Assembly (NCBI GenBank): GCA_903864935.1
Contig: CAIPHT010000005.1
Coordinates: 9,867 to 73,866 of the forward strand
Source: Candidatus Vogelbacteria bacterium
GTDB lineage: Bacteria; Patescibacteriota; Minisyncoccia; Phycocordibacterales; XYD1-FULL-46-19
Length of the DNA: 64,000 bases
Direction: 5' to 3'
In this document: positions 8,484-59,616 of the stretch, piece after piece
How the letters are laid out: each line of letters opens with the position of its first letter
Numbering within the stretch: the stretch's first letter is position 1
Position numbers and translations under genes: made by a program
Notes under the pieces: generated by a model
The model's input: only the letters and a program-made list of their open reading frames with translations
Told to the model about the DNA's origin: nothing
Database searches by the model: none

Positions 8484-9104
8484 ATGAAGACTTTCGCTTT
8501 TATTGACGCTTCTAATCTTTTTTATGGTGGTGAAAAAAGTTTAGGTTGGAAGATCGATTATCAAAAATTACTCGCTTATATTAAAGAAAAATACGAAGCG
8601 GAAAAGGTCTTTTATTTTGGAGGAGTGGAAATTCACGATTTTCTCTATGACTATCAAAAAGAAGAAACCGTCAATTTATCGGAGTTAGAGAAACATTTGT
8701 TGTTGATAATCAAAAATGAAGAGAATAATTTTAACGAAGCTCGGTTAATTCTTTTTGGTCACCATCTTCAGCGTGTTCGTTTTTACAAAAAGCTAGAATC
8801 TTTTGGTTACAAAATGTTTCTCAAGCCGGTTAAACTTTTTGAGCAGGAAGATGAATCAACTAAAAGAAAAGCTGATTGCGATGTTGATATGACAGTAAAA
8901 ATTATCAGAGAAAAAGATAATTTTGACCGAGCTCTTATTTTGTCTGGTGATGGAGATTTTTTGCCTACCCTAAAATATCTGAGAGAATTAGAAAAAGAAG
9001 TTGTTATCTTGGCACGTGGGCCTAGGACAGCACGAGAAATTCGCCAATTTGCTGGCAGTAATTTTAGAGACTTCGAGTATCTTCGAGAGCTATTAAAAAG
9101 GTAA
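8484..9104 (+). CDS. NYN-domain (LabA/PIN-like) protein
   Basis: MKTFAFIDASNLFYG ... ILSGDGDFLPTLKYLRE is a NYN/LabA-like nuclease-fold signature. The ATG at 8484 is preferred over the longer upstream extension. Confidence 0.65.
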   Translation: MKTFAFIDASNLFYGGEKSLGWKIDYQKLLAYIKEKYEAEKVFYFGGVEIHDFLYDYQKEETVNLSELEKHLLLIIKNEENNFNEARLILFGHHLQRVRFYKKLESFGYKMFLKPVKLFEQEDESTKRKADCDVDMTVKIIREKDNFDRALILSGDGDFLPTLKYLRELEKEVVILARGPRTAREIRQFAGSNFRDFEYLRELLKR

Positions 9105-20501: not shown

Positions 20502-20751
20502 AAGCGTGCTGCCGCTCGGTATTTTTACACGGTAATTTTAGACAACGAAAGAGAAATCAAGGTTTTTGCCTTAACTTTAAGGGGATTTGAGATGGTAATT
20601 GATTTCTGGGCCATGACCGGTTAGAGACCAAACGGACTTTAGGTTAATGTTTCTAATAAATTTACAACCAATTTGATTTAATATCGAATGACTTAATGAT
20701 ACCACACCCCTCGTCAGACCTCAAGTCCCAAACTTGCTCAGTAAAACAACA

Positions 20752-20797
20752 CAGAAAACCCCTCCAGCGAGGGGTTTTCTGTGTTGTTTAGGCTAAC
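20752..20797. terminator. intrinsic terminator AACAACACAGAAAACCCCTCCAGCGAGGGGTTTTCTGTGTTGTT (near-identical copy at 53963-54003)
   Basis: Long perfect stem GAAAACCCCTC/GAGGGGTTTTC, downstream of clpP on the minus strand. Confidence 0.65.
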
Positions 20798-20809: not shown

Positions 20810-21394
20810 CTACTTTCCCTTGCTCTTAATTATCTCATCGATAATCCCGTATTTTTTGCCTTCTTCGGCCGAGAGATAGAAGTCGCGGTCGAGGTCTTTC
20901 TCGATTTGGGTCTCACTCTGTCCAGTGTTCTTTGCCATTATCTTAGTGAGGTTCTTCTTTGTCTTGATGATATGTTCCGCCGTGATTGCAATGTCGGAGG
21001 CTTGTCCCTCAGTTCCACCGAGTGGTTGGTGAATCATTATCTCGGCATTAGGGAGAGCCAAGCGCTTACCTTTAGCGCCAGAAGAGAGAACCCAAGCCCC
21101 ACCTGAGGCGGCCATGCCCACACAGACAGTGGAGACATCAGGCTTGATATAATTCATTGTATCTATAATAGCGAGGGTTGAAGTGACGGAACCTCCAGGG
21201 GAATTAACATAAAGAGTAATATCCTTAGAGCCATCTTCGGCTGCTAAGAAGAGGAGTTGAGCAATAATGATATTGGCGAGATTGTCATCAATAGCGCCAC
21301 CTAAGAAGACAATGCGGTCCTTCAAGAGGCGTGAATAGATATCGTAGGCGCGTTCGCCTTGAGGGGATTTCTCAATAACGGTTGGGATTAACAT
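20810..21394 (-). CDS. clpP: ATP-dependent Clp protease proteolytic subunit
   Basis: [19 protein letters not shown]...MIHQPLGG with the Ser-His-Asp triad context, 194 aa. Confidence 0.92.
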
Positions 21395-35132: not shown

Positions 35133-35175
35133 CATATATGGTAACATTTTTTACAATTGTAAAAAATGTTACCAA
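35133..35175. promoter_or_regulatory. 36-bp perfect palindrome TGGTAACATTTTTTACAATTGTAAAAAATGTTACCA (copy 1, downstream of the PaaX-like gene)
   Basis: Perfect dyad symmetry. A second copy at 35737-35774 differs by a single centre base. Confidence 0.6.
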
Positions 35176-35194: not shown

Positions 35195-35713
35195 TTAAAC
35201 AATTTCTTTCTCTTTGACCTCAAAAAATTTGAGGTGGGGGAGAAGGTCCATTGTTTTTAGATGCTCAATAAATTCCTTGGGTAGGGGAGCGGGTCCAAGC
35301 CAAACGCTTTTTTGTAGTAGCTTAAATCCGAGCCCAACCAGTTCTACTCTTAGCCAGTAACGACTTCTTTTCTTGTCTTCTGGGATATCGAAAGCAATGA
35401 TAACTTTTTTGTCCGTTTTGTTCCCTTTAATTGGTGTAGTGTGATTTTTGTATAATTTTTGGCTCTTAAATTTTCTTAGCCCTTCAATTGTCAGACTCCA
35501 ATTTTGCCCATTTTCTTTAAGTAGCCCGTTTTCCTTGAGACGATATAGTGTTGATTTTAATACTTTTTCTTGGGCATATTTCGCTCTTCTTTGCGTTGAT
35601 ACTTTTTCCATCTCCTCTTCTATTCGAGGATCTCCCATCATGTGTAACCGCAAATTACGGTAATTACCTGGATGATTAGATAAAAAGAGAAATATTTGGT
35701 CGGTTAGTTTCAT
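35195..35713 (-). CDS. PaaX-like transcriptional regulator (wHTH + PaaX-middle-domain-like), truncated form
   Basis: N-terminal wHTH (...KVLKSTLYRLKENGLLKENGQNWSLTIEGLRKF). Then DKKVIIAFDIPEDKKRSRYWLRVELVGLGFKLLQKSVWLGP, which resembles the PaaX central domain (GKWLLLLSEGLDKS...QLIWQGFGALAPSLMASP). Confidence 0.55.
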   Translation of the reverse strand: MKLTDQIFLFLSNHPGNYRNLRLHMMGDPRIEEEMEKVSTQRRAKYAQEKVLKSTLYRLKENGLLKENGQNWSLTIEGLRKFKSQKLYKNHTTPIKGNKTDKKVIIAFDIPEDKKRSRYWLRVELVGLGFKLLQKSVWLGPAPLPKEFIEHLKTMDLLPHLKFFEVKEKEIV

Positions 35714-35736
35714 TATTATTATCTATTTTAACAAAT

Positions 35737-35774
35737 GGTAACATTTTTTACAATCGTAAAAAATGTTACCAGAA
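35737..35774. promoter_or_regulatory. 36-bp palindrome copy 2 in the divergent intergenic region between the PaaX-like gene and tpiA (putative operator)
   Basis: GGTAACATTTTTTACAATCGTAAAAAATGTTACC, 60 nt upstream of the tpiA ATG. Confidence 0.55.
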
Positions 35775-39236: not shown

Positions 39237-39807
39237 TCTTTAAAATAATTTTTTTAGAATTACAAAGCCGCCAGAGGTCCTAAGACATGGCGGCAAACGG
39301 GGCCCCTCGAGGGGGCAAAAGCAGTGAGCAACGAAATCCAGACGCATGAACTTCGTTGCCTAATCTAAATAAAAATTGAAAGTTAGGGCACTTTCGTGGC
39401 GTCGTCCGTGGGCCTACTACTCCGAGCGATTCGGAGTGCAACTACGCGAGCTCTCGCAGTTGCTACGGCCTTTCTTTATTTATAGAACAGAGAAGATTGC
39501 TGGGGTGGTCTCATCGCTAACTCGCAATTGGGCGAGCGAGGGGTCAGCAAACTTCTTAGAGGAGCATCTAAGTTAAGTATATCATAACCACAAAATTTGT
39601 CAAGGATAAAAATAGAAACCGCCAGGTCTCGCAATGCGGTGGGACCCCAAGGGGGTGGTCGCGTTACGAAAAACTGGCGGCGGTAGCCGGTGGCATCCGG
39701 CCACGCGGGGAGCATTCAGATAGAGCTTGGGCCCCAATGCCCTTCTTTGTGGCATCCCTCTGCCCTTTAGTGTGTCATAACTTCAAAATTCGTCAAGTAT
39801 AAAAACA

Positions 39808-39843
39808 CCGCCCAGGTTTCGGACTCACTTGAGGCCTGGGCGG
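39808..39843. repeat. GC-rich hairpin of the CCGCCCAGG...CCTGGGCGG family (3' of the HIT gene)
   Basis: CCGCCCAGGTTTCGGACTCACTTGAGGCCTGGGCGG. Related copies at 48441-48476, 54947-54986 and 59543-59580. Confidence 0.6.
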
Positions 39844-39859
39844 GGAGAGGAGAAATGGC

Positions 39860-40276
39860 TTAAATTAAAGATTTTTTGATAGCTTCTTGAGTCTCGGCAA
39901 AATCTTCTTTGGTATAGCCACCTTGGCCATGCCAATGGATGAAACCGTCGCCGTCGAAGCGGGGGATGAGGTGTACATGGGAGTGGAAGACGAGTTGGCC
40001 GGCAGCCGGTTCGTTATTCCAACCAATATTTAAGCCATCGGCTTTGGTTCCGTCTTTGATTGCTCTGGCCAGTTTTTGTAAGACTGGGCCTAGTTTGATG
40101 AGAAGTTCTGCGGGTAGGTCGAAGAGGTTGCGGTGGTGTGCCTTAGGTAAGAGCAAGGTGTGGCCAAGATTAACAGGGTTGATATCGAGAACGGCCAGCC
40201 AGTCGTTATCCTCATAAACTTTGTCAGCCGGGATATCGCCGGCGATAATTTTGCAAAAAATACAGTCTGTTTCCAT
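39860..40276 (-). CDS. HIT-family (histidine triad) nucleotide hydrolase
   Basis: GHTLLLPKAHH...HSHVHLIPR: an HxHxHxx histidine triad with the N-terminal CIFCKII motif. Confidence 0.85.
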   Translation of the reverse strand: METDCIFCKIIAGDIPADKVYEDNDWLAVLDINPVNLGHTLLLPKAHHRNLFDLPAELLIKLGPVLQKLARAIKDGTKADGLNIGWNNEPAAGQLVFHSHVHLIPRFDGDGFIHWHGQGGYTKEDFAETQEAIKKSLI

Positions 40277-48440: not shown

Positions 48441-48476
48441 CCCGCCAGGCCTCGGGCTCACTTGAGGCCTGGCGGG
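48441..48476. repeat. GC-rich hairpin of the CCGCCAGG...CCTGGCGG family (terminator for the S2P gene)
   Basis: CCCGCCAGGCCTCGGGCTCACTTGAGGCCTGGCGGG. Confidence 0.6.
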
Positions 48477-52173: not shown

Positions 52174-52327
52174 GACTTAAAAATTAGCCAAAGCCCCGCT
52201 GGATATGTCCATATCCAGCGGGGCTTTGCTTTTATTGACTTATCTTTGGATTTTGCTAATATAAGTGTTGCGTTTGTGCGCAGTCTTTTAATTTGTATTT
52301 ATTATTAATCGTTAATTTTAATTAATT

Positions 52328-53533
52328 ATGGCAGCAGAAAAATTTGATCGTTCCAAGCCACACGTTAACGTCGGGACCATTGGCCACGTTGACCACGGCA
52401 AGACCACCCTCACCGCCGCTATCTTGTACACTCTAAACATGGCCGCTGGCCAGGGTTATAGTGCACGCGTAGAAGGTGTTGATGGTATTGATAATGCCCC
52501 TGAAGAAAAAGCTCGTGGGATCACGATTGCTCTTCACCACTCCGAGTACGGTACTCCTAAGCGTCACTATGCTCACATCGACGCCCCAGGTCACGCCGAC
52601 TATATTAAGAACATGATCACTGGTGCTGCCCAGATGGATGGCGCTGTTATCGTTGTTGCTGCGACTGACGGTCTTATGCCTCAGACTCGTGAGCACATTC
52701 TTTTGGCTCGTCAGGTTGGTGTACCTAAGATTATTGTCTTCATCAACAAGTGCGATATGGTTGATGATCCTGAACTTATTGACTTGGTTGAGGAAGAAGT
52801 TCGCGAACTTCTTACCAAACAAGAATTCGATGGTGCCAACTGCCCAGTTATCCGTGGCTCCGCTCTTAAGGCTCTTGCCGCCACCAGTCTTGATGACGAG
52901 TGGTCCAAGAAGATTATGGAGTTAGTCCAAGCGATGGATGACTATATTCCTGATCCTGTTCGTGAAGTTGACAAGCCTTTCTTGATGCCGATTGAAGATA
53001 TCTTCTCTATTGAAGGTCGCGGTACTGTCGTTACTGGCCGTATCGAGCGCGGTGTTGTGAAGGTTGGTGAAGATGCTGAGATTGTTGGTCTTAAGGACAC
53101 TGTCAAGACCACCATTACCGGTATCGAAATGTTCAACAAGCAACTCGATGAGGGTATGGCTGGCGACAACGCTGGTATTCTCTTGCGCGGTCTTAAGAAG
53201 GATGATGTCACTCGTGGTCAGGTTTTGGCCAAGGTTGGTTCTATCACTCCTCACACCGAATTTACTGCTGAAGTTTACATTTTGACTAAGGAAGAAGGTG
53301 GTCGTCACACCCCATTCTTCGCTGGTTACAAACCACAGTTCTACATCCGTACCACTGACGTGACTGGTGAGGTTATCCTCCCAGAGGATGTGAAGATGGT
53401 TATGCCTGGCGATACCATTAGCATTACTGTTAAGTTGATTTCTCCGGTTGCCTTGGAAGACAAGCAACGCTTTGCTATCCGCGAGGGTGGTAAGACTGTT
53501 GGAGCCGGTGCCGTTAACAAAATTATTGCTTAA
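52328..53533 (+). CDS. tuf: elongation factor Tu
   Basis: [22 protein letters not shown], and the remainder canonical; 401 aa. Confidence 0.95.
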
Positions 53534-53566
53534 GTTCGCTTAATCAATCAAGCACCTTACAAAATT

Positions 53567-53941
53567 ATGGAAAACGAAACAAAAACAACCAAAGCCAAGA
53601 AGCCGGTGAAGGCCAAGAAGGATGAGGTAAAAGAATTGGCCAAGTTGCGCATCCGTGTCTCAGCTTATGAGCACAAAGTGCTTGATGCTTCGGTGAAGCA
53701 GATTGTCGATACCGCGACTCGTTATGATGGTAAGATTGAGGGCCCTATCCCTCTTCCTACTGAGTTCAAGAAGTATACGGTTAACCGTAGCTCCTTCATC
53801 GACAAGAACTCCCGCGAGCAGTTCGAAATGCGTATCCATAAGCGCTTGATTGATATCTCTAACCCCTCTCCGAAGTTGATTGAGAGCCTCACAAATCTCA
53901 ATCTTCCATCCGGAGTTAACATTGACGTAAAGATGATGTAA
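53567..53941 (+). CDS. rpsJ: 30S ribosomal protein uS10 with a Lys-rich N-terminal extension
   Basis: [37 protein letters not shown]... with an extra ~25 aa [12 protein letters not shown] at the N-terminus. Confidence 0.9.
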
Positions 53942-53962
53942 AGTCGCTCGACTTACTTCAGT

Positions 53963-54003
53963 TAAACAACACAGAAAACCCCTCCAGCGAGGGGTTTTCT
54001 TAC
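53963..54003. terminator. intrinsic terminator, near-identical copy of 20752-20797
   Basis: AAACAACACAGAAAACCCCTCCAGCGAGGGGTTTTC. Confidence 0.6.
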
Positions 54004-54412
54004 GCTCCGCATCGGCCATTTTGCCATTGTTCTCGCTTTGCTCGAACATAAATGATGGCAAAAACCGGCTGGCCGTAGCTACGCGAGGTTGTTTAACTGA
54101 AGAAGTCTCGCTTAACTGCAAACCGCCACTGAGAGGCGAAGCCTCTCAGTGGCGGTTTGCTAGAAACTCGAAACCCTACCAATCGGTAGGGTTTCTCGGA
54201 GGCCGGAGCCACTAATACATAAATTGTAATACTGGGCATTTGAAAGTCAAATCAAAAAAAAGGCCCCCGATGCAGACGTGTCTGCATAAGGGTCCTCTCC
54301 GTAGTGATGTGTATATTATACCCCCGGGTATTAAAAAGTCAAGAAATGGAAAACCCGCCGGCGGCAAGCGGGAAATCCGTTTGCGCGCGCGGCGGGTGTG
54401 TGGGCAGTGAAC

Positions 54413-54829
54413 TTAGCTGAGGTCGACGCCAGCCTCTTTCATGGCTTTGGCGAGGGCCTTTTCGACGAGGGTGGGAAGTTTTTTCTTGAACTCTTCGACC
54501 AGGGCCAGGGCTCTTGCCGGAAGGTCTTCAAGGTGAGATCTCTTCAACTCGTCACCGTCCCTTCTGTGCTTCAGTGAAATCTTGCTCATCTCGGCGCAGA
54601 GGATTTTGACCTGCTCCAATTCCTGGAGGTCCTCTTTCGGGATGTCCTTGCTGAGAAAATGGTATTTCGAGGCCATGTCTCTGCCGGCATCTTCCACTGT
54701 GTGCACCAAACGCCAGTCGTCTTTCCCTTCCCAGTTGGTGAGTCTCTTGAGGGGGTTACCGAAGTGTTCTGTTGAGCGTGTTGGTTGGCTTCGGTATTCT
54801 TCAACTAAACGCCTGAAGTTTATCATCAA
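54413..54829 (-). CDS. hypothetical protein (138 aa), GC-richer, inserted between rpsJ and rplC on the opposite strand
   Basis: Own consensus promoter (54902-54930, minus), RBS AAGGAGAA, and several downstream terminator hairpins (54120-54400). Confidence 0.5.
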   Translation of the reverse strand: MMINFRRLVEEYRSQPTRSTEHFGNPLKRLTNWEGKDDWRLVHTVEDAGRDMASKYHFLSKDIPKEDLQELEQVKILCAEMSKISLKHRRDGDELKRSHLEDLPARALALVEEFKKKLPTLVEKALAKAMKEAGVDLS

Positions 54830-54901
54830 CTTTCTCCTTCTTCTTTCTGACCTTATCTCAAAAGCACCCTACTTGTTCGGGCACCTTACTCTCTATAATT
54901 A

Positions 54902-54930
54902 AGTATAGCACAATAGGTTCTATATGTCAA
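54902..54930 (-). promoter_or_regulatory. extended -10 sigma70 promoter TTGACA-N17(..TGC)-TATACT on the minus strand
   Basis: Reverse complement reads TTGACAtatagaacctattgtgcTATACT; drives the 54413-54829 gene. Confidence 0.6.
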
Positions 54931-54946
54931 TGGCTCTACATTCAGA

Positions 54947-54986
54947 CCCCGCCCAGGTCTCGGGCGACCTTGAGGCCTGGGCGGGG
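54947..54986. repeat. GC-rich hairpin CCCCGCCCAGGTCTCGGGCGACCTTGAGGCCTGGGCGGGG between divergent promoters
   Basis: Same family as 39808, 48441 and 59543. Confidence 0.6.
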
Positions 54987-55003
54987 GAAAGGAGGGGTAA
55001 ATA

Positions 55004-55032
55004 TTGACTTTAAATGACATTCTGGTAGTATA
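55004..55032 (+). promoter_or_regulatory. putative promoter TTGACT-N16-TAGTAT for the rplC-rplB segment
   Basis: Hexamers read by eye; weaker than the others. Confidence 0.35.
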
Positions 55033-55067
55033 AACCAGAGCTCGTAGGGGCTATTATTTTTACTTTT

Positions 55068-55721
55068 ATGAAATTCATTCTCGGCAAAAAGGAATACATG
55101 ACCCAGCTCTTCGATGAGTCTGGTAAGGTTGTCCCTGGGACGGTTGTTTCGGTTGGGCCGATGTCTGTTCTAGAGATTAAGAAAGGCAAGCCTTCTACGA
55201 CTAGATCCAAGACTGGTACTTACGATTCAATGGTTATTGGTTATGGTGAGCGCAAACTCTCTAATGTTAATAAGCCTCAGAAAGGTTTGATTAAGAAGGC
55301 CCTGGCTGATAAGGAAAAGGGTTTTGCCGTTATTCGTGAGTTCAATAATAAGAAAAGCGAGTTACCAGCTGTTGAAGTTGGCTCAACTATCGATGCCTCG
55401 GTCTTCGCTGTCGGCGATAAGGTGGTTGTGAGCTCTATTTCTAAGGGTAAGGGCTTCCAAGGTGTCGTCAAGCGTCACGGCTTCAAGGGTGGACGTCGTT
55501 CTCATGGTCAGAAGCACTCTGAGCGTGAGCCAGGTTCTATCGGTGCTGGTGGCAAACAACGTGTTCTTCCTGGTATGCGCATGGGTGGCCGTATGGGTAC
55601 TGATCGTATTACTGCTAAGAATTGCATCGTTTCCCGTGTTGATGCCGAGAAGAATTTGATTTTTATAAAGGGGGCCATTGCCGGTCGCAAGGGGACGTTG
55701 GTTGAGATAATGAGCAAGTAG
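55068..55721 (+). CDS. rplC: 50S ribosomal protein uL3
   Basis: Canonical L3 sequence (..GKGFQGVVKRHGF.GG...HG...). Confidence 0.92.
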   Translation: MKFILGKKEYMTQLFDESGKVVPGTVVSVGPMSVLEIKKGKPSTTRSKTGTYDSMVIGYGERKLSNVNKPQKGLIKKALADKEKGFAVIREFNNKKSELPAVEVGSTIDASVFAVGDKVVVSSISKGKGFQGVVKRHGFKGGRRSHGQKHSEREPGSIGAGGKQRVLPGMRMGGRMGTDRITAKNCIVSRVDAEKNLIFIKGAIAGRKGTLVEIMSK

Positions 55722-57591: not shown

Positions 57592-57602
57592 AAACTCAGA
57601 AC

Positions 57603-57645
57603 TGCCCTTGGCCTTCGGTCAAGGGCAGTTTTACTTTTCCCCCTT
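57603..57645 (+). terminator. intrinsic terminator CTGCCCTTGGCCTTCGGTCAAGGGCAG + TTTT immediately after rplB (inside the S10 operon)
   Basis: Perfect 9-bp stem plus a T-run. Confidence 0.6.
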
Positions 57646-57750
57646 TTTTTCTTTTCCCTCATGTCCCTCAATGCTATTATTAACCTAGGCCTAAAGTGCC
57701 TAACGTGTTTTTATTATAAATTTATTAGTAACCAATTTTTTATTAAACAA

Positions 57751-59511
57751 ATGAAAAAGTATCTTTTTGGAGCCCTCTTGGCCTTAGCGCTAGTTGTTGC
57801 TCCTTTTGTGTCTAGTGCGGCAACTACCCCTGTGGCAAATCAAGGCAAGCCAGTTGTTAAGTTGGCCACCGGGTCAGTATCTCTAAAAGATGGGCGGGTT
57901 GAAGCCGTTTTTAATGGTTACGTTTCCTCTTCTGGCGGGGAGGCCTACATTGATAAGAACAATCCCTTTAACGTTCGCCTGATTAATTATTCGGGAAAGG
58001 GCCTAAATAATAATAGTTGTAAAGTTGTGTCATATGATTATGATAAAAATTTGTCTAGCGTAAAGGGTAAATGGGGGCAATTAATTACAGTTTTGAAAAA
58101 TGGCACAAATGCTCGATATAGAGTTGTGGTTAGTTGCGACACTAATGGGTTATTAGCTGGAGTTTACTATGCAGAATTATCCTATTTATATTATTGGCCA
58201 ACTATCATGAGTCAATATGGGGCTCATCTAAATATCAATAATAAGTCAAATGATTATGTTTATGTGTCTGGTGATAAATCATCCCCTTGGATTTCCAATG
58301 TAAATAATCCTGTTGAGAACGGAGGCAAAGTTGCTCTAAGTGGTTTCAATTTGGGTAATATTAACGCTGTCTATGTCGATGGTCTTCCGGTTTCCACTGA
58401 ACATAACACCTCTGACCCTAACAATCTTTCGTTTAATTTGGCAGAAGACCTTACTGTTGGTCATCATGAATTTCAAGTGGCCAACGTTAATGGGCGAAGT
58501 AATTTAGGCGACTTAATTATTAAACCCCGTGTTATTATTGTAAGCCTTCTCTTTGCTCCATCGACCTTTATCCCTACCAGTCAGACCCTTAAGGGGGGAG
58601 ACTCAAAGTCGATTATTGCGATTGATCTCAGCGTCTACAGGTCAAAGCTGGCTGTTAGCCGTTTAGATGTTCATTTTACCGAGCGCCCATGGCTTAACTT
58701 CAGTGAAGTTAGCTTAAGAGATATCAATGGTACGATTATTGCTCGCAAAACCTTATCAGGACCTAATGACGCGACAGAAGTCTCGGCTGGTTCTGAGTAT
58801 TTTGTTCGTTTTGATAACATTGATTATCCCGTTATTCCTGGTAACAAGTCTACTCTCGTTGCTTGGGCCAATGTCCGCCCTATTGCTAAGTTTACGGCTG
58901 GAGAGAAGGTTGGAGTTAGTATTCCTGCTGGTTCCGTCCAGTATTTTAGTGGCCTAAGCACGACGACTGTTGGCTTGGGTTCTGCTTTTCGGATTGGCGG
59001 GGCCTATGTCAATACTTTAACCATGCTTGATACGGTCTCCTCTCCGGTTATTACTCCAACCCCTGCACCAGTCACTCCAGTTACTACCGGTTCGGTTGTT
59101 ACTCCAACCCCAGTTTCAACTCCAGCCCCTACTACCGTTACGGCTGAAGTTTCCCCTCGCGTCTCGGCTATTGCCGGTAACCTTTACCCAGGTGGGTGGG
59201 TTAAGTTGAGTGGGGCTCGCTTAACGACGGACGTCAAAATTGTAGATAATTATGACCCTAGTAAGATTGTGGTGCCACTGAGCCTCTCCGATGTTAATGG
59301 TGACGGGACACGCATTGATTTCAAGTTGCCTTCGGATATGAAGATCGGGGCCTATTACCTTAATGTTTACAGCAAGACGGGCATGAAGAGCCCAACCATG
59401 CCTTTCCCAGTCACTGCCAAACCTGTCACTTCGGCTCAAGCTAAGGTTAACCAGCTCGCGGCCACGGCCAGTGCCCTACAGGCTATTCTTGATAAAATGA
59501 TGGGGCAGTAG
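57751..59511 (+). CDS. secreted surface protein (signal peptide, Ig/IPT-like beta domains, Pro/Thr-rich linker) inserted between rplB and rpsS
   Basis: MKKYLFGALLALALVVAPFVSSAA signal, PTPAPVTPVTTGSVVTPTPVSTPAPTT linker, and 586 aa of beta-rich sequence. The ATG at 57751 is preferred over the upstream extension. Confidence 0.6.
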   Translation: MKKYLFGALLALALVVAPFVSSAATTPVANQGKPVVKLATGSVSLKDGRVEAVFNGYVSSSGGEAYIDKNNPFNVRLINYSGKGLNNNSCKVVSYDYDKNLSSVKGKWGQLITVLKNGTNARYRVVVSCDTNGLLAGVYYAELSYLYYWPTIMSQYGAHLNINNKSNDYVYVSGDKSSPWISNVNNPVENGGKVALSGFNLGNINAVYVDGLPVSTEHNTSDPNNLSFNLAEDLTVGHHEFQVANVNGRSNLGDLIIKPRVIIVSLLFAPSTFIPTSQTLKGGDSKSIIAIDLSVYRSKLAVSRLDVHFTERPWLNFSEVSLRDINGTIIARKTLSGPNDATEVSAGSEYFVRFDNIDYPVIPGNKSTLVAWANVRPIAKFTAGEKVGVSIPAGSVQYFSGLSTTTVGLGSAFRIGGAYVNTLTMLDTVSSPVITPTPAPVTPVTTGSVVTPTPVSTPAPTTVTAEVSPRVSAIAGNLYPGGWVKLSGARLTTDVKIVDNYDPSKIVVPLSLSDVNGDGTRIDFKLPSDMKIGAYYLNVYSKTGMKSPTMPFPVTAKPVTSAQAKVNQLAATASALQAILDKMMGQ

Positions 59512-59542
59512 AGTATTGAGATTGTCCTGAAATTAAGAAAAC

Positions 59543-59580
59543 CGCCCAGACCTCTAGTTTCCCGAGGTCTGGGCGGTTTT
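59543..59580 (+). terminator. intrinsic terminator of the CCGCCCAG hairpin family (CCGCCCAGACCTC...GAGGTCTGGGCGG + TTTT)
   Basis: 13-bp stem plus a T-tract after the surface-protein gene. Confidence 0.65.
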
Positions 59581-59616
59581 TGCTTGCCCCGTGGGGGTGA
59601 AGTCCCTCTACGGGGT

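Follow-up and report, generated by a model that had tools for sequence, protein, structure and literature searches.

The ribosomal-protein supercluster is among the most conserved of bacterial gene orders. In the stretch of 64,000 nucleotides (nt) analysed here, from Candidatus Vogelbacteria bacterium, a member of the Patescibacteria with a small genome (contig CAIPHT010000005.1, hereafter the window), a gap of 1,126 nt (53942-55067) separates rpsJ, the gene of ribosomal protein S10, from rplC, the gene of ribosomal protein L3. The junction is probably an old boundary between two transcription units, at which this genus has a permissive slot for accessory genes that differ by lineage. The locus is genuine; as flexible islets at operon boundaries go, it is an ordinary one.

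The arrangement proposed is as follows. Transcription of tuf and rpsJ would stop at a strong intrinsic terminator (53973-54000), and that of rplC-rplD-rplW-rplB would restart near 55038, from a sigma-70-type promoter of its own. DNA placed between the terminator and the -35 box would disrupt nothing essential, and hence be tolerated: since the interval belongs to neither unit, an insert should be neutral to ribosomal expression, given terminators of its own. The slot appears to be filled by self-contained one-gene cassettes, each made of a near-consensus promoter, a Shine-Dalgarno sequence (unusual in this genome), an open reading frame (ORF) and a hairpin terminator, as well as by reusable hairpin modules found elsewhere in the genome. 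In the window, the filler is orf137, an orphan gene for a predicted helical bundle of 137 amino acids (aa); behind it lie an "empty" module of promoter and terminator and then a stack of hairpins. This stack (the terminators T1 and T8, the hairpins of 20 and 11 bp and the bidirectional terminator of rpsJ) most likely shields rpsJ from the minus-strand transcription that runs towards it out of the cargo, acting against antisense read-through. The content would be swapped among relatives, homologous recombination within rpsJ and rplC and within shared modules being the most likely route. The features discussed are reported in Table 1.

Table 1. Features of the rpsJ-rplC junction in the window; arrows denote minus-strand signals, read 5' to 3'.
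Feature	Position	Strand	Description
rpsJ (ribosomal protein S10)	53567..53941	+	124 aa; NCBIfam equivalog NF001861, E-value 2.6e-40, residues 25-123
Y-shaped palindromic element	53950..54108	.	outer helix 53950-53970 / 54088-54108, around the terminator hairpin and a long hairpin nested beside it
rpsJ intrinsic terminator hairpin	53973..54000	.	12-bp stem, plus-strand tail TTTTCTT; predicted end of the tuf-rpsJ unit
Nested insert	54001..54091	.	about 90 nt within the palindrome of the terminator, in its 3' arm; basal stem GGCCATTTTGCCAT / ATGGCAAAAACC conserved, tip variable
Long hairpin	54118..54160	.	perfect 20-bp stem (54118-54137 / 54141-54160), 3-nt loop, no U-tract on either strand
Short hairpin	54170..54195	.	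perfect 11 bp; window allele only, no copy in any relative
Promoter-like site	54250->54223	-	TTGACT-16-TACAAT, 10/12 matches; window allele only
Promoter-terminator module	54251..54350	-	promoter TTGACT-16-TATAAT (54342->54315) firing into hairpin and T8 terminator (54296->54251)
Terminator module T1	54351..54412	-	downstream of orf137; hairpin 54372->54354, tail TTTTCCATTT
orf137	54413..54826	-	ATG at 54826, 137 aa, gene-caller product P0001; a TTG start at 54829 would give 138 aa
orf137 promoter	54930->54902	-	TTGACA-17-TATACT, extended TG, 11/12 matches
Hairpin between the divergent promoters	54947..54986	.	15 bp; repeated family CCCGCCCAGG...CCTGGGCGGG, then GGAGA
rplC promoter and leader	54998..55067	+	TTGACT-16-TAGTAT with TG (55004-55031); leader of about 36 nt
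rplC (ribosomal protein L3)	55068..55721	+	217 aa; NCBIfam TIGR03625, E-value 3.1e-57

Transcription signals at the junction

The original prediction, made from this sequence, had described a 1.1-kb insertion between rpsJ and rplC and named an assembly error as the finding that would refute it. The gap is present as described, and an assembly error is excluded, because independent metagenome assemblies reproduce it at 99.9-100% identity. Locus L001 matches the window over 8,240 nt and L002 over 5,873 nt, with 1 mismatch each; L002-L004 are 99.9-100% identical, gene order across the gap is also unchanged in a 12-kb ENA/NCBI contig, and the exact 137-aa product of orf137 is encoded on contigs of several independent samples and assemblers. 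The idea of a chimeric rpsJ-rplC join, produced in assembly or binning, can draw on the rpsJ terminator being a repeat within which contigs L094-L097 end. These four short and independent Logan contigs all stop at the equivalent of position 53993, within the repeated 43 nt of the terminator, because the repeat breaks short-read assembly, and they do not speak against the join. The whole gap is crossed, with one and the same sequence, by contigs that differ in sample and assembler, and related alleles join the same flanks, so an artefact has practically no probability left.

The region is rich in signals. A scan of 53400-55300 found 9 terminator-like sites, to be compared with 2.3 +/- 1.6 in shuffled sequences, and 7 promoter-like sites, with 1.5 +/- 1.1 in the shuffles. 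Perfect stems of at least 10 bp number 27 in the window, 3 of them within a stretch of about 460 nt in the gap, where about 0.2 would be expected.

Upstream of rpsJ, on the same strand, lie rpsL, rpsG, fusA and tuf (52328-53533), the stop codon of the latter being 33 nt from the rpsJ start. The rpsJ terminator had been taken for a copy of the one after clpP, and rightly so: 53958-54000 (43 nt) is 97.7% identical to 20738-20780, directly downstream of the minus-strand Clp protease gene at 20810-21394. The hairpin is terminator-like on the minus strand too.

The presence of a new promoter for rplC, also part of the original prediction, is confirmed. Downstream of it, the leader contains a small hairpin (55039-55052) and a U-rich tract, without a Shine-Dalgarno sequence, and leads into the first gene of the rplC-rplD-rplW-rplB unit. 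The whole promoter region (54998-55067) is 100% identical in L085 and 97% identical in L091, while the -35 box and the extended -10 box are invariant in the window, L085, L091 and L005, that is, down to an L3 identity of 72%. The same -10 box and leader are found in L101 and L105, two alleles in which the slot is empty. There, the rpsJ stop codon is followed by AAAAAAGCCCC-TYCG-GGGGCTTTTTT, by an abutting TTGACA-17-TAGTAT, by the same leader hairpin and by rplC. As the terminator abuts the promoter in these empty alleles, the break in transcription would be a property of the junction and not a consequence of the cargo; as both signals are present without cargo, the break of the operon should predate it. 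Separate transcription of rplC-rplB, as proposed in the prediction, is therefore well supported by the sequence, through the invariant promoter and through the terminator and promoter of the empty congeners.

The same cannot be said of a single str-tuf-rpsJ unit, which the prediction had assumed upstream. Between fusA and tuf (52174-52327), a perfect 18-bp hairpin terminator (52189-52228) abuts a promoter, TTGACT-16-TAATAT (52235-52262), in a layout like that of the empty rpsJ-rplC junctions, and the upstream genes therefore probably form two units. In congeners, this interval holds a Methyltransf_21 gene and a 126-aa ORF (L101) or a DUF5671 gene (L105). A second variable slot is found between rplB and rpsS (57592-59600). 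In the window, it contains a plus-strand ORF of 616 aa (57661-59511), without Pfam family, flanked by hairpins (57600-57630 and 59538-59580); a hydrophobic segment at the N-terminus of the product suggests secretion. At the same place, L091 has ORFs of 98 and 392 aa (with a similar C-terminal region), L101 one of 549 aa with a PG_binding_1 domain, and L103 one of more than 754 aa, weakly matching PKD; L105 is empty, with 204 nt.

S10 itself carries an N-terminal, Lys-rich extension of about 24 residues (53567-53640), which precedes the region matching the bacterial S10 model; tblastn alignments to other loci start at query residues 24-27, that is, only past this extension.

Slot content among relatives and the orf137 gene

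In order to compare the junction with that of related genomes, congeners were retrieved by their identical S10 protein and by close L3 homologues; their flanking genes are 79-94% identical to those of the window. The synteny comparison showed the rpsJ-rplC junction empty or variously filled: eight related lineages correspond to seven states of the slot. While the window has orf137 on the minus strand, the slot is empty in L101/L102 (93 nt; L3 identity 88%) and in L105 (132 nt; 81%). Unrelated ORFs fill it in L091/L092 (115 aa, minus strand; L3 89%), in L099 (111 aa, plus strand) and in L103/L104 (386 aa, minus strand; L3 82%), and a small plus-strand ORF in L005 (L3 72%). The last is the closest species representative, with identities of 95% for S10 and 91% for EF-Tu. 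In L085 (L3 partial), the slot holds P0002, a homologue of orf137 at 36% identity, together with an NYN-domain gene and a 240-aa ORF. The picture of a single insertion event, as originally drawn, does not fit these data, since content differs among congeners and the break made of terminator and promoter exists without cargo. The presence in the gap of remnants of the L085 NYN or 240-aa genes was considered and discarded: tblastn against the window finds only a separate NYN paralogue, at 8484-9032. A scan of metagenome contigs with the codon pattern of the rplC 5' end returned a single unrelated high-GC contig (L090).

The comparison of the window with L085 shows a mosaic of identities. The body of rplC is 81% identical, whereas its first 69 nt, together with leader, promoter and 15-bp hairpin, reach 96%. 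The -10 element and 5' untranslated region of orf137 follow with 93%; most of the coding region cannot be aligned (44%), its last 25 codons return to 72%, and the module formed by T1, promoter, mini-ORF and terminator is at 97%. Past the module no identity is found.

The best L3 matches all belong to Patescibacteria, under labels such as 'Candidatus Paceibacterota', Kaiserbacteria and Nomurabacteria. The distance from S10 to L3 was measured by tblastn in the fetched loci, 43 of them Patescibacteria-like and 24 from other phyla. It exceeds 300 nt in 18 of the 43 and 600 nt in 8, with a maximum of 4,077 nt; in all 24 loci of other phyla it is at most 184 nt. The junction had been called universally contiguous elsewhere and its splitting rare in bacteria. 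The former statement fails on the 18 Patescibacteria-like loci, and also on plastids, which separate rps10 from the rpl3 cluster (PMC6330054); the latter holds outside Patescibacteria and not within them, where the split is common. The largest contents are diverse. In L017 (677-4754), from a Candidatus Nomurabacteria metagenome-assembled genome (MAG; JACKGI010000003), a complete diversity-generating retroelement (DGR) lies between rpsJ and rplC, with a Fib_succ_major target protein, bAvd, an apparent Asn-rich template-repeat region and a reverse transcriptase (E-value 1e-16). A ParE toxin is found in L027 and a protein with a sigma-70 region-4-like domain in L016; the remaining large gaps contain orphans only.

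The cargo of the window had been described as a minus-strand, GC-richer gene of 138 aa with a consensus promoter of its own. This is correct except for the length, 137 aa being likelier, with the Shine-Dalgarno sequence AAGGAG (54839->54834) 7 nt upstream of the ATG. The 5' untranslated region, of about 69 nt, contains a small hairpin and a U-run. The GC content of orf137 is 0.519, and 0.652 at third codon positions (GC3), versus 0.452 for the whole window. In cargo genes, except for the NYN gene with 0.28, GC3 lies between 0.57 and 0.66, somewhat above most host genes; an outside origin or a different expression regime may be suspected from this, but neither is proven. Shine-Dalgarno-like motifs precede the five genes of the orf137 family and the 115-aa and 111-aa cargo ORFs, while the regions upstream of tuf, fusA and the ribosomal genes lack them. 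By a crude count, based on the first ATG, a core GGAG, GAGG or AGGA at -18 to -4 occurs in 4 of 50 long ORFs of the window.

Relatives of orf137 are rare. A word-indexed search of 5.8 billion proteins found orf137 alone; 2 weak matches came in addition from an exhaustive HMMER scan of 1.8 billion representatives, and 2 further relatives from a profile search, for a total of five cluster representatives. They are 127-137 aa long and share the motifs M-x-N-x-K/R...YR-x-Q at the N-terminus and LP-x-L-I/V-EK-x-L...E-A/S-G at the C-terminus. An AlphaFold2 model, built on a shallow alignment, is an all-helical bundle with a mean pLDDT of 78.8 and a pTM of 0.70. No match was obtained in Pfam, PHROGs, NCBIfam or PADLOC, nor by tblastn against phages and plasmids, nor in IMG/VR with the profile of the family. 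Among PDB sequence profiles, the best match was tubulin chaperone A, at an E-value of 0.04, which is not credible; Foldseek returned generic helical bundles only, with best E-values of 0.23 (PDB) and 0.18 (BFVD), not significant. Two apparent kinships were rejected: the other 138-aa minus-strand ORF, at 39860-40276, is a HIT-family protein and not a paralogue, and bAvd, a small helical bundle at the same junction in L017, has no profile support as a relative. Two family members, P0004 and P0005, stand alone in unrelated neighbourhoods, beside a HAD hydrolase, with their own promoter and terminator. All told, orf137 looks like a real, dispensable accessory protein, predicted to be strongly expressed.

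Two observations concern distant family members. Downstream of them, a very basic ORF of about 47 aa is conserved in L087 (1400-1560) and L089 (1170-1320). It reads MKKT..SPxRRENLKAI.AF.ESQKHIDSRPPVK..., has promoter- and terminator-like signals of its own, and is absent from the window. Upstream of the family gene in L089 (60-480), long imperfect inverted repeats were seen by eye, such as CGCGCCATCTCCAC paired with GTGGAGATGAG.

Several points weigh against the reading of the junction as an old boundary used as a slot. The upstream half of the 'filled-type' promoter, TAAATATTGACTTTA, is also found in the outgroup L005; the empty alleles might thus be secondary deletions. The conservation of non-coding DNA at 96-97%, against 81% for rplC, could reflect functional constraint, for example on a small RNA or an operator, in place of recent exchange. 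No recombination machinery or uptake route was identified for the exchange of the slot content. The relatives are MAGs or metagenome contigs, several of them short. Terminators, promoters and insulating role are all deduced from sequence alone, and the biochemical role of orf137 is not readable from its sequence or fold.

Hairpin modules and alternative explanations

The presence of at least four strong hairpins in the gap, as predicted, was confirmed; the stem quoted as an example is perfect, and is 20 bp long instead of 19. The features of intrinsic terminators were found at 53973-54000, at 54372->54354 and at 54296->54261 followed by T8. The 20-bp and 11-bp hairpins lack a U-tract and therefore do not qualify as intrinsic terminators.

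The rpsJ terminator is part of a larger fold. It is enclosed by a long-range pairing of 15 bp (53956-53970 / 54088-54102), and the region 53950-54108 assumes a Y shape because about 90 nt are nested in the 3' arm of the terminator palindrome. Neither the clpP copy nor the rpsJ terminator of L091 contains this nested insert; it is present, with other tips, in L099 and after rplB in L091. The Y-element therefore occurs, with a common architecture, after rpsJ in the window and in L099 and after rplB in L091, the tips differing in each copy and those of L091 and L099 containing further perfect hairpins. When the three versions were compared, 93% of the cells were paired and both partners had changed in 5 pairs; 3 of 500 shuffles scored at least as high. 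Since only three sequences enter the comparison, and one of them supplied the structure, the covariation is no more than suggestive of the structure being kept, and it is unable to separate a constraint at the RNA level from one at the DNA level. On folding, 53950-54216 gives z-scores of -12.7 (minus strand) and -13.5 (plus strand).

The neighbouring modules differ in their distribution. The 20-bp hairpin is conserved in L091/L092, where a compensatory change (G>T / C>A) keeps 20/20 pairs; in L099, it is swapped for another hairpin, a copy of the pair found in the window at 35139-35174 / 35736-35771. The promoter-like site at 54250->54223 is a degenerate direct repeat of the neighbouring promoter (54342->54315), and is absent from relatives. 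The latter belongs to a module (54251-54350) which is 97-98% identical in L085 and absent in L091, and whose hairpin (54261-54296) forms 17 bp at 82% before the T8 on the minus strand. The transcript predicted for it, of about 55 nt, has a folding z-score of -5.2. T1 also occurs 3' of unrelated cargo, after P0002 and the 240-aa ORF in L085 and after the 115-aa ORF in L091. The 15-bp hairpin between the divergent promoters has related copies at 39810-39850 and 48441-48476, in L085 and in L091 (8018-8054).

Within the promoter-terminator module, a minus-strand mini-ORF (54287->54252) of 11 codons, MQTRLHRGPFF, with GGAGAGG in front, may be fortuitous; in L085 (1027-1083) it reaches 18 codons by a frame difference in the T-run. 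An ATACCC/GGGTAT palindrome lies across the spacer and -10 box of the module promoter.

Searches in collections gave nothing relevant. With Rfam 15 at gathering threshold, only three tRNAs were found in the window; with E-values up to 10 allowed, nothing in 53850-55150 scored better than a microRNA model, whose 25 bits compare with a gathering threshold of 93. Neither blastn nor tblastn of the region matched the phage and plasmid collections, and no match was found in IMG/VR with the T1 terminator motif.

Such a concentration of palindromes invites other explanations. The hairpins could be small non-autonomous mobile elements, similar to repetitive extragenic palindromes (REP), bacterial interspersed mosaic elements (BIME) or miniature inverted-repeat transposable elements (MITE), which would insert copies of themselves at intergenic sites and even in one another's stems, and the gap largely a pile-up of them which trapped or dragged along the cargo. 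At least three families are multi-copy in 64 kb (20738-20790 and 53956-54000; 35139-35174 and 35736-35771; 39810-39850, 48441-48476 and 54947-54986), one of them recurring in the L099 slot, a copy of the rpsJ terminator (terminator A) lies after rplB in L091, and hairpins are nested in hairpins, both in the terminator arm and in the tips of L091 and L099. However, the comparison of filled with empty junctions revealed neither terminal inverted repeats nor target-site duplications, copy numbers are low, and a survey of the gap showed no transposase, integrase or REP-associated tyrosine transposase (RAYT). Moreover, the copies sit where terminators are needed, and duplication with neighbouring genes, or recombination, suffices to explain them. 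This explanation is doubtful as an account of the whole gap, although it is compatible with, and not exclusive of, the slot at an old boundary. A smaller probability is assigned to the view that the point of the locus is one or more functional small RNAs, encoded on the minus strand in the hairpin stretch of about 53950-54310. The species would be one of about 55 nt, from the promoter at 54342->54315, and a structured one of about 250 nt, from that at 54250->54223 to the terminator at 54000->53973. Both near-consensus promoters are well placed, the minus strand folds extremely well in the long species and clearly in the short one, the module of the latter is 97% conserved in L085 beside coding DNA that cannot be aligned, and compensatory changes keep the stems. 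Yet no Rfam family was found even at E-values up to 10, and, the stems being perfect palindromes, one strand folds as well as the other, so that modules acting as DNA, or terminators, fit as well as an RNA gene. Besides, the 54250 promoter and the 11-bp hairpin are confined to the window allele, L091 lacks 54167-54342 and L099 has a different hairpin in place of the 20-bp one: an important RNA gene would not be so dispensable among congeners.

Least probable of these, and by a good distance, is a role of orf137 as dedicated partner of the ribosomal operon, for example as a regulator of the rplC promoter or as a ribosome-associated factor. It could be suspected from the divergent layout with rplC in two family members (window and L085), from their 96% conserved common intergenic control region and from the palindrome over the downstream module promoter. 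The role is unlikely because orf137 is replaced by unrelated ORFs, or by nothing, in congeners that retain the rplC promoter and leader. P0004 and P0005 sit in their unrelated contexts, the fold is a generic helical bundle, and no DNA- or RNA-binding domain was detected.

Comparison with known systems and other hairpin loci

In the classical S10 operon, rpsJ and rplC are co-transcribed, and a regulatory leader lies 5' of rpsJ; in Escherichia coli this is an attenuator leader responding to L4 (PMC3616713). In the window, the two genes appear to be parted by terminator and promoter, rpsJ starts shortly after tuf and no Rfam leader precedes it. The order from rplC on (rplC-rplD-rplW-rplB...) is that of E. 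coli, and the rplC leader likewise has a small hairpin and then a U-rich tract; unlike there, rpsJ is not the first gene of the rplC unit, and the short leader has no detectable similarity. The arrangement is closer to the str cluster of cyanobacteria and plastids, where rpsJ comes directly after tuf, and rplC stands apart from it at the head of another unit; in plastids, rps12-rps7-tufA-rps10 is kept apart from the rpl3 cluster (PMC6330054). Unlike the plastid type, the two clusters are still neighbours here, at 93-1,126 nt within the genus, and fusA|tuf is probably a boundary too. A common origin with the plastid arrangement is unlikely.

Insertions into the ribosomal supercluster of Gammaproteobacteria and Bacilli lie mainly between operons, such as bfd-bfr or ilv-leu between str and S10, and 67% of the rearrangement events trace to insertions (PMC8046335). 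The boundary used there is tufA|rpsJ, while here it lies one gene downstream and the content turns over at the genus level. As in integration hotspots and flexible islets, a fixed site between conserved genes has variable content, the cargo consists of orphan or accessory genes (a DGR and a toxin in distant relatives) and the mosaic of identities is consistent with recombination in the flanks. Unlike the usual islets, the site is inside the ribosomal supercluster, tiny, mostly occupied by one gene, without integrase, tRNA or att site, and reusable modules of terminator and promoter form the edges of its cassettes.

An integron array was rejected: orf137 is the sole ORF of the gap and has no Pfam match (no search was made for intI farther away in the genome), each cassette has a near-consensus promoter of its own and both orientations occur among alleles, and the hairpins are perfect palindromes, not attC-like. 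An insertion sequence or MITE was rejected too, on the comparison of filled and empty sites and on the lack of a transposase-like ORF in the gap. The hairpins appear to resemble REP and BIME in their organization in repeated intergenic families at gene 3' ends, in their clustering and in a plausible function as terminators or insulators. Unlike these, stems are longer, perfect (up to 20-21 bp) and nested, and copy numbers are very low, the three families having 2-3 copies each in 64 kb, with copies in relatives too. No RAYT was identified among the 9 other ORFs of the window scanned with Pfam.

The kind of locus is thus already known, a flexible islet at an operon boundary, with rpsJ travelling with tuf and not with rplC. 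This instance is a new one, of modest interest: the slot lies inside the ribosomal block by which such organisms are binned and placed, the break is compact and conserved, and hairpin modules are reused and unusually nested. Genomes of candidate phyla are often binned or placed by their syntenic ribosomal block; in Patescibacteria this block has interruptions at defined junctions, where the repeated terminators tend to break contigs, as in the four Logan contigs. Even the most conserved gene cluster can be split into short units, whose cuts are slots in which genes specific to a lineage are tolerated beside very highly expressed operons. Being so rare, orf137 is a curiosity and not yet a lead, and nothing points to a new molecular system.

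A broader and rather improbable speculation is that the Paceibacteria-like supercluster is punctuated by compact terminator-promoter junctions (fusA|tuf, rpsJ|rplC and rplB|rpsS) which act as preferred landing pads for accessory genes of fast turnover (orphans, DGRs, toxins, surface proteins), the cargo being moved by a hairpin-directed copy-and-insert process that nests palindromes. If true, this would be a route of mobilisation for portable terminators so far undescribed in this group.

Two other loci of the window share hairpins with the junction. About 620 nt at 39237-39859, without ORFs of at least 120 aa and without Rfam match at E-values up to 1, contain several GC-rich hairpins, including the copy of the 54947-54986 family, and twice the motif TCATAAC...AAAATT.GTCAAG.ATAAAAA. 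Further upstream, the near-identical hairpins at 35139-35174 and 35736-35771, with 13-bp stems (TGGTAACATTTTT...AAAAATGTTACCA), bracket a minus-strand ORF of 172 aa (35195-35713), which has a PaaX central Cas2-like domain (E-value 2e-13); the arrangement looks like another cassette of a single gene bounded by hairpins.

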